A DNA stretch of 64,000 bases, from NCBI RefSeq assembly GCF_001677475.2, contig NZ_CP015229.1. The stretch is one strand, 5' to 3'. Origin of the DNA: Escherichia coli. GTDB taxonomy: Bacteria; Pseudomonadota; Gammaproteobacteria; Enterobacterales; Enterobacteriaceae. Below are positions 59,181 to 59,723 of this stretch, piece by piece. The translations under genes were made by a program, and so were the position numbers. A model generated the notes under the pieces. It did no database searches. It was not told the origin of the DNA and saw only the letters and a list, made by a program, of their open reading frames with translations. How positions within the stretch are numbered: position 1 is the stretch's first letter; each line of letters begins with the position of its first letter.

Positions 59181-59723
59181 CTATCTTCGGCAGAGATGCT
59201 TTGCCAAATTCACATCATTCATCGACATTAAAATACTGTCTTTGATGAACTCGCATACCTCGTTAATTTTTGCATCGGTATCTACGTGCGAAAATGTTCT
59301 GTCCCCATAACCATTAACTGAAATCGTCAGGTTATCGCCATCAAGCAGCACAATCTTTACACCAACTTCCACACTTGCAGACTGGCGGGGATTGTCATCA
59401 ACAACTGTGTATAAATTAAACGCAACTCCGTCCCTAAGGTCTACCTGCAAATCCTCCGGTCGGACACTGAAGCCATTGAGGCAAATATAGACGTAAGGAT
59501 GTAACTCACCCTCAATGTCTCGCCATTGCAGTTCCGGCAACGCCAGTGAAGACTCATAGGCATTGACCAGCCTTGTGGCTGTATCCCGCAACCGCTGAAT
59601 GTATTCCTGCTTAGCTTTCAGTATTTCGGCCCGTTTTGCCCTGATATCAGCATAAGTGACCACTGTATCAATCCTCTTATGAACAAATAAACAAGCCATC
59701 ATAATAACCGCCAGGGTATACAT
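59181..59723 (-). CDS. hypothetical protein (possible N-terminal membrane anchor; alternative GTG start at 59663)
   Basis: 180-aa ORF; ATG start lacks RBS, internal GTG has AAGAGG RBS. Confidence 0.5.
   Translation of the reverse strand: MYTLAVIMMACLFVHKRIDTVVTYADIRAKRAEILKAKQEYIQRLRDTATRLVNAYESSLALPELQWRDIEGELHPYVYICLNGFSVRPEDLQVDLRDGVAFNLYTVVDDNPRQSASVEVGVKIVLLDGDNLTISVNGYGDRTFSHVDTDAKINEVCEFIKDSILMSMNDVNLAKHLCRR

Follow-up and report, generated by a model that had tools for sequence, protein, structure and literature searches.

A terminator-flanked accessory gene with two conserved in-frame start codons in the Q-to-holin region of a lambdoid Escherichia coli prophage

The stretch of Escherichia coli DNA analysed here (64,000 nucleotides of contig NZ_CP015229.1, hereafter the window) carries a genuine protein-coding gene under purifying selection on its minus strand at 59181-59702. 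That the gene is real follows from its homologues (64 family representatives), from dN/dS values of 0.1-0.4 by segment against diverged E. coli alleles, and from an AlphaFold2 model with a pLDDT of 91.8. It is an accessory gene of the "moron" type in a lambdoid prophage, located in the slot between the antiterminator Q and the holin and bounded by terminators on both sides, and alignments show that a pair of in-frame start codons, separated by 11-13 codons, is conserved in its family. Taken as a whole, we read the locus as a Q-to-holin accessory gene with two conserved starts whose soluble product would be made mainly late, in a Q-dependent manner, and would act as a dimeric binder; we give this combined reading a somewhat better than even chance.

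The gene and its prophage setting

Between 55 and 64 kb the window contains the late regulatory genes and lysis genes of a lambdoid E. coli prophage, read from the minus strand; over this region it matches the chromosome of strain GB089 at 99.8% identity. In the 5' to 3' direction of that strand, genes for DUF968 and RusA come first, ahead of the antiterminator Q (62495-62869; PF06530). Q is followed by a CPBP/Rce1-like protease (61522-62346), a small ORF and a frameshifted or truncated DNA methyltransferase (60336-60885); the latter gene is intact, at 1047 nt, in the related sequences L003, L004, L013, L015 and L016. Genes for tRNA-Thr and tRNA-Gly (60221-60068) come next, and a non-coding stretch of about 300 nt separates tRNA-Gly from the ORF under study. 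Beyond the ORF lie a TerB-family (TciA-like) gene (58545-58970), a DUF3927 (TciB-like) gene (58384-58548), a phage-21-type holin (57399-57695; PF04971), a 213-aa unknown protein and lysozyme, all on the minus strand. An earlier note on this DNA, made from the sequence alone, had placed a 180-codon ORF at 59181-59723 of the minus strand, in a "Q-to-lysis cargo region". The ORF is present as placed and ends in a TAG stop codon at 59183-59181, and the Pfam matches of Q and the holin on its two sides agree with that description of the region.

Other features of the window were recorded in the course of this analysis. The interval between the DUF3927 gene and the holin contains, immediately after the former, an Rfam match to the STnc100 sRNA (58167-58342, minus strand; 93.7 bits against a gathering score of 47). 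The late operon also includes a further cargo gene running in the opposite direction, a 111-aa IraM-like ORF (57787-58122, plus strand); in GB089 it is labelled by PGAP as anti-adapter protein IraM, the RssB inhibitor stabilising RpoS. Elsewhere in the window, Rfam matches were obtained for DsrA (10782-10868), RseX (19204-19293) and the pair IsrK and C4 antisense RNA (29240-29421); IsrK and C4 together suggest that a second element, of P4-like or satellite type, is present.

The ORF is preceded by two hairpins on its own strand. Hairpin 1 (59761-59787; ACCGCCA-CACC-TGGCGGT followed by T9) was found both by terminator scan and by folding, and corresponds to the strong upstream terminator described previously, with the hairpin at 59787-59770 and then a run of nine T. 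It terminates the tRNA-Thr/tRNA-Gly/structured-RNA unit and is kept in most E. coli relatives. Hairpin 2 (59725-59746; GGCTCGC-TACG-GCGGCC followed by T5), which the earlier note did not mention, was found by folding and is likewise present in the majority of E. coli relatives. L013 and L014 have other hairpin sequences with T-runs at these positions, including a different hairpin and T-run in place of hairpin 1 in L013, so that structure is retained and sequence is swapped. The non-coding stretch ahead of these hairpins (59765-60067, minus strand) folds with unusual stability (-112.4 kcal/mol, z = -7.6) into a long near-perfect hairpin, the core of which, at about 59846-59958, is conserved in five related prophages with five compensatory base pairs among six sequences. 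It has no Rfam family match and may be a structured sRNA or a trailer of the tRNA operon ended by the T9 terminator.

Directly 3' of the ORF the terminator scan identified a further intrinsic terminator, absent from the earlier note: AGGCTGCGCATTTACGTGGCCT followed by T6 (59106-59133, minus strand, with the hairpin at 59133-59112). A terminator stands at the equivalent place in L002, L006, L007, L009, L010, L011 and L024, and its stems show compensatory changes among members. The sequence AGGCTGCGCA...CGTGGCCTTTTTT is common to the window, L002, L007, L010 and L024, and the near-identical copies lie at 5536-5555 in L002, 6558-6581 in L007 and about 3270-3300 in L010, despite the proteins of these three being only about 22-29% identical to that of the window. 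This shared terminator sequence may be a recombination boundary. In phage CharmingMan, the DNA from the terminator into TerB is also conserved with the window.

Two in-frame start codons

The earlier note had left the start of the ORF ambiguous between an ATG at 59723 and a GTG at 59663. The ambiguity is real, but the alternatives are the ATG codons at 59702/59699 and the GTG at 59663. The ATG at 59721-59723, used for the 180-aa form by PGAP and in the earlier note, is probably a spurious start. As had been noticed before, no motif resembling a Shine-Dalgarno (SD) sequence precedes it, and it stands directly after a terminator hairpin and its T-run. In relatives the codon is replaced by ACG (L004, strain A19), ATA (L005 and L024) or ATC (L013). 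Between the window and L013, nonsynonymous changes outnumber synonymous ones by 14 to 3 in the 20 codons ahead of the GTG, and the changes fall on the three codon positions as 3/8/8, with no third-position bias; inside the gene the corresponding figures are 42 and 37, and 26/22/55 by codon position. A 180-aa, membrane-anchored product from this ATG would have in its favour that it is the longest ORF, that PGAP annotates it in GB089 (WP_038813804.1), and that its first 13 residues are hydrophobic. Given the loss of the codon in four relatives, the missing SD and extra codons free of coding-type constraint, we regard such a product as extremely unlikely. The possible membrane anchor proposed in the earlier note does not hold up either: at about 13 residues, the hydrophobic run falls short of the length of a transmembrane helix, and the highest-scoring 19-residue stretch on the Kyte-Doolittle scale (1.59) sits solely in the non-conserved extension, which is absent or different in relatives. 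Translation from ATG 59702 retains only "MMACLFV" of this run, and the 19-residue Kyte-Doolittle scan found no transmembrane segment in the shorter forms of 160 and 172-173 aa.

The upstream start region (59697-59712, minus strand) consists of a weak SD-like GGCGG (59712-59708) and a tandem ATG-ATG (59702-59700 and 59699-59697), which would give a long form of 173 or 172 aa; this conserved in-frame pair is missing from the earlier note. The downstream start region (59661-59678) holds the GTG (59663-59661) and, at a spacing of 9 nt, the SD sequence AAGAGG(A) (59678-59672), as had been noted, and would give a short form of 160 aa. We tabulated the start codons of 18 diverse family members for which DNA was available, numbering codons from the one that aligns with GTG 59663 (position 0). 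ATG or GTG occurs at -1, 0 or +1 in 18/18, and where this codon specifies valine it is GTG in seven of seven cases, never another codon for valine nor one for isoleucine or leucine. A second in-frame ATG or GTG is found 11 to 13 codons upstream in 17/18, often behind AGGTGA or GAGGT. An SD-like motif stands before nearly all starts of both kinds, the downstream motif being weak in L002 and L018. Annotation mirrors this pattern: the offsets of family hits are bimodal, with about half of the 64 representatives beginning at the position of GTG 59663 and many others 11-14 residues upstream, and PGAP/RefSeq places the start of the gene at four or more different positions in close relatives. From this conservation we infer that both codons are probably used and that the likely products are of 160 aa and 172-173 aa. 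The 160-aa form, the soluble protein of roughly that length anticipated in the earlier note, is well supported by the family and is probably made, and a 172/173-aa form with a short flexible N-terminal tail is probably made also. Because GGCGG is weak in the window, the long form may be minor or absent in this particular allele.

Two single-start explanations compete with the use of both codons. It is possible, though we think it unlikely, that GTG 59663 is the sole start and only the 160-aa protein is made, the upstream ATG and SD-like motif having another role, for example as a ribosome standby site, part of a promoter or a 5' leader. The downstream SD is the stronger of the two in the window and its nearest relatives, many members are called from the GTG position, and the PHROG 5091 profile alignment begins there, at residue 21 of the 180-aa form. 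In a comparison of the window with L013, identity is only about 30% in the 12-codon extension and 65% in the body of the protein, and AlphaFold models the extension without secondary structure at a pLDDT of about 66. Furthermore, the sequence TATTAT at 59706-59701 could be a -10 element, which would place the start of the transcript between the two start codons. What this explanation does not readily accommodate is the fixed distance of the upstream start, which recurs in all but one of the 18 members and is bounded in L006, L007, L010, L023 and L046 by in-frame stops just 3-5 codons further up. Such spacing makes little sense without translation from the upstream start in at least part of the family, and in L018 and L010 the upstream SD is in fact better than the downstream one.

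The converse explanation, in which ATG 59702/59699 is the only start, the 172/173-aa protein the only product, and the GTG with its purine stretch simply encodes conserved residues R-I-D-x-V, is improbable. The upstream start is the outermost conserved one, and the nearest subfamily keeps (K/E/G)-R-I-(D/N)-x-V in a single codon phase, so that conservation of amino acids and of nucleotides is inseparable there. Outside this subfamily, however, the residues ahead of the downstream start vary freely and the SD core persists: in distant members it is GGAG, AGGA or GAGG, lies 6-12 nt upstream in varying codon phase, and falls within the amino-acid contexts KGRN, EGRF, RKETS, WRKA, NRSKY and LEKCID. 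This variation points to selection on an RNA motif and not on a peptide, and the strict occurrence of ATG or GTG at the downstream position in every member tabulated argues in the same direction. We retain the reading with two start codons. A nested RNA structure masking both SD sequences, or a fourU-like thermometer, was also considered and found unsupported: RNAalifold returned no consensus pairs for 15 sequences, and MFE z-scores averaged -0.97, with -0.19 for the window.

The predicted protein and its family

By its composition and hydropathy the product is a small, acidic, soluble protein (pI 5.06 and GRAVY -0.24 for the 160-aa form) and not a membrane protein; the 172-173-aa form is acidic as well. 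AlphaFold2, run with a 61-sequence alignment, gave a model with a pTM of 0.82 in which a 36-residue helix at the N-terminus is followed by eight antiparallel strands and, at the C-terminus, a helix of 21 residues, and the fold is confidently predicted to be a two-layer alpha/beta sandwich with an eight-stranded antiparallel sheet. A Foldseek search found nothing. Comparison was made with three other kinds of alpha/beta sandwich, namely the FP domain (Fbxo7/PI31), type III secretion chaperones (SicP, SycH, AvrPphF ORF1) and frataxin/CyaY. No sequence similarity to any of them was detected, structural scores were under the level that indicates homology, and the predicted sheet differs from theirs in being eight-stranded. 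To our knowledge, the host genera Serratia, Lelliottia and Budvicia are not known for type III secretion. A dimer is suggested by a single tandem-fusion model, which reached a pTM of 0.69 for its 342 residues even though 30 of them form a disordered linker.

Two further features of the allele in the window were noted. When it is compared with L003 or L015, dS is about 2 in codons 28-97 of the short form and 0.1-0.3 at the ends of the gene. We take this central hypervariable segment to be an intragenic mosaic, which implies recombination breakpoints inside the gene. Diversifying selection on codons 28-97 was considered as well and is ruled out by the saturated dS and by a dN/dS of 0.1-0.2 in the segment. 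In addition, protein and 3'-end DNA alignments place a 1-nt deletion at about 59210 (59205-59213, minus strand), where GTGAAATTTGGC has become GTGA-ATTTGGC. This deletion, missing from the earlier note, is carried by the window allele and by L017 and changes the C-terminal tail to ...NDVNLAKHLCRR instead of ...NDVKFGKASLPKIEGW...; just past the last helix, ...NLAKHLCRR and a stop codon replace ...KFGKASLPKIEGW.... The window allele with its frameshifted tail may be partly impaired.

The earlier statement that the protein has no recognisable domain stands for Pfam, NCBIfam and PADLOC; it does not extend to PHROG 5091, a family of unknown function that matches residues 21-174 over profile positions 2-161 of 164 (E = 3.2e-41). 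This direct HMM match brings no functional annotation, and neither the dual-start feature nor the fold is described for it. No significant match was found in Pfam, NCBIfam or PDB sequence profiles, nor in a Pfam scan of 61 family members, and no defence-protein HMM of PADLOC-DB 2.0 matched at E <= 1. A profile search of 5.8 billion proteins returned matches that are all named "hypothetical protein". One candidate relative, P0062, was discarded as a false positive with Ig-like repeats, and searches of the literature on the family, its accessions and DUF3927 found nothing relevant. The earlier note would have been refuted by a clear homologue among known phage structural or lysis proteins; none turned up.

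The 20 close homologues belong to Escherichia, Citrobacter, Salmonella and Hafnia. Exhaustive searching with HMMER yielded 64 cluster representatives (E <= 1e-3), nearly all of 155-180 aa; those with named hosts, all again labelled "hypothetical protein", come from Serratia, Lelliottia, Phytobacter, Enterobacter and Budvicia. The family is confined to phages of Enterobacterales. The gene is rare within this range: it was found in 26 of 5426 complete E. coli genomes and in one of 50,697 phage records, that of phage CharmingMan, which encodes a 28% identical protein. Its position varies. Members lie between Q and the holin in L004, L007, L010, L023, L024 and L046, next to holins of three different families; after the lysis genes and before terminase in L011/L012 and L018-L021; and inside tail modules in L006, L009 and L047. 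Rarity together with these different slots is the pattern of a mobile accessory cassette. The member in L018-L021, at 7001-7510 between the lysis cassette and the Nu1 terminase gene, is a 43%-identical paralogue of 169 aa (P0089) that occurs in 396 blocks of the assembly collection and in only one of the 5426 complete E. coli genomes. The same prophages also encode the A and B subunits of Shiga toxin (Pfam RIP and SLT_beta), with the stx genes at about 3021-4256.

Accessory status, expression and possible role

The neighbouring TerB and DUF3927 genes raise the question of whether the protein is a functional subunit of a TciA/TciB-like stress or colicin-resistance module. The gene lies directly upstream of both in the window, as it does in CharmingMan and in the majority of E. 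coli relatives, and the pair adjoins it in L002, L003, L005 and L013-L017 as well as in the window. Adjacency is not obligatory, however. The pair is absent beside the gene in L004, L007, L010, L023, L024 and L046, and there is no TerB near any of these six or near L006, L009, L011 and L018; conversely, the gene is missing from 91 of 92 phage records with this TerB, and its own terminator separates it from TerB in the window. Phage P1 (L022, 66412-71008) has a parallel layout, with the dmt methyltransferase, a dicF-like region, genes for tRNA-Asn and tRNA-Thr, the TerB-like tciA and the DUF3927-like tciB. The place of the window gene is taken there by plp and upl on the opposite strand, and P1 TciC, considered as a possible relative, is an unrelated 35-aa peptide. 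Neither homology to a component of TciABC nor obligatory co-occurrence with TerB was found. We conclude from the non-obligatory adjacency, the intervening terminator, the phage records and the unrelated tciC that the gene and TerB/DUF3927 are separate cargo genes, and consider a common module very unlikely.

As an accessory gene of the moron type the locus has both patchy presence between conserved phage genes and an intrinsic terminator directly downstream. Phage morons in the sense of Hendrix and Juhala, such as lambda bor and lom, HK97 gp15 and stx, are among the closest comparisons. Like these, it is a single extra gene among conserved late genes, missing in some close relatives and flanked by terminators, and like stx in Stx phages it occupies the hotspot between Q and the holin. 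It departs from them in that a convincing promoter belonging to it was not detected. The products of many classic morons are envelope proteins, whereas the product here is predicted to be cytoplasmic and soluble. The one promoter-like match, TTTTCA-16-TATTAT at 59728-59701, is weak, with only 9 of 12 consensus positions. It overlaps the apparent SD-to-ATG spacer of the upstream start, its candidate -10 is homologous to that spacer in other members, and no consistent promoter was found in distant members. Two further sequence features were noted in the window: the 10-mer CCTGGCGGTT is modestly over-represented, and CTGGCGGT, which occurs twice, may resemble the lambda operator.

In phage lambda, and in Stx phages in the case of stx, terminators are passed late in infection by RNA polymerase that Q has modified. 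By analogy with these phages, the gene would be transcribed mainly late by Q-modified polymerase reading through the flanking terminators, and late expression is the safest inference. Expression in the prophage state would require a promoter belonging to the gene itself. The downstream terminator argues that some transcription that is not Q-modified reaches the gene, but only the weak promoter-like match described above was found.

The nearly invariant residues of the family are mainly aromatic and aliphatic (Y, L, F), together with S, T and K; no catalytic motif was recognised among them, and there was no match to a catalytic family. These two observations, together with the tandem-fusion model, favour a binder over an enzyme. 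On this basis the protein would act as a dimeric, non-enzymatic binder of another protein, in the manner of an inhibitor, an adaptor or a chaperone, and would serve phage-host or phage-phage conflict or late-stage physiology. Our preferred guess at its role is an accessory factor that binds a protein and is produced late in infection.

A more specific proposal concerns the two starts. The lambda S107/S105 holin/antiholin and the sieB gene of P22 and lambda, with its internal product Esc, are phage genes with in-frame dual starts. The present family likewise has two conserved in-frame initiation codons, each with an SD-like motif, isoforms predicted to differ only at the N-terminus, and a location next to the lysis cassette. 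Unlike S107/S105, the starts are separated by 11-13 codons and not by 2, and the product is predicted to be soluble and not a membrane holin. One may speculate that the two isoforms of the dimeric protein, a 12-residue N-terminal tail apart, act as effector and self-inhibitor in the manner of holin/antiholin or SieB/Esc; we rate this as a long shot. If true, the protein would be a soluble regulator of a new kind, controlling either the timing of lysis or abortive infection and superinfection exclusion, and encoded on a mobile cassette beside the lysis genes of enterobacterial phages and with a paralogue in Shiga-toxin prophages.

Apart from that proposal, the analysis corrects the annotation of the gene, moving the start from 59723 to 59702/59699 and 59663 and removing the membrane anchor. 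It also defines a phage accessory family restricted to Enterobacterales, with a confidently predicted fold that has no close structural relatives and with an unusual pair of in-frame starts conserved across the family. The finding would gain in importance should the protein turn out to be a factor in conflict or lysis timing, as the gene occupies the slot used by stx cargo, has a 43%-identical paralogue in Shiga-toxin prophages, and moves between unrelated phage backbones.
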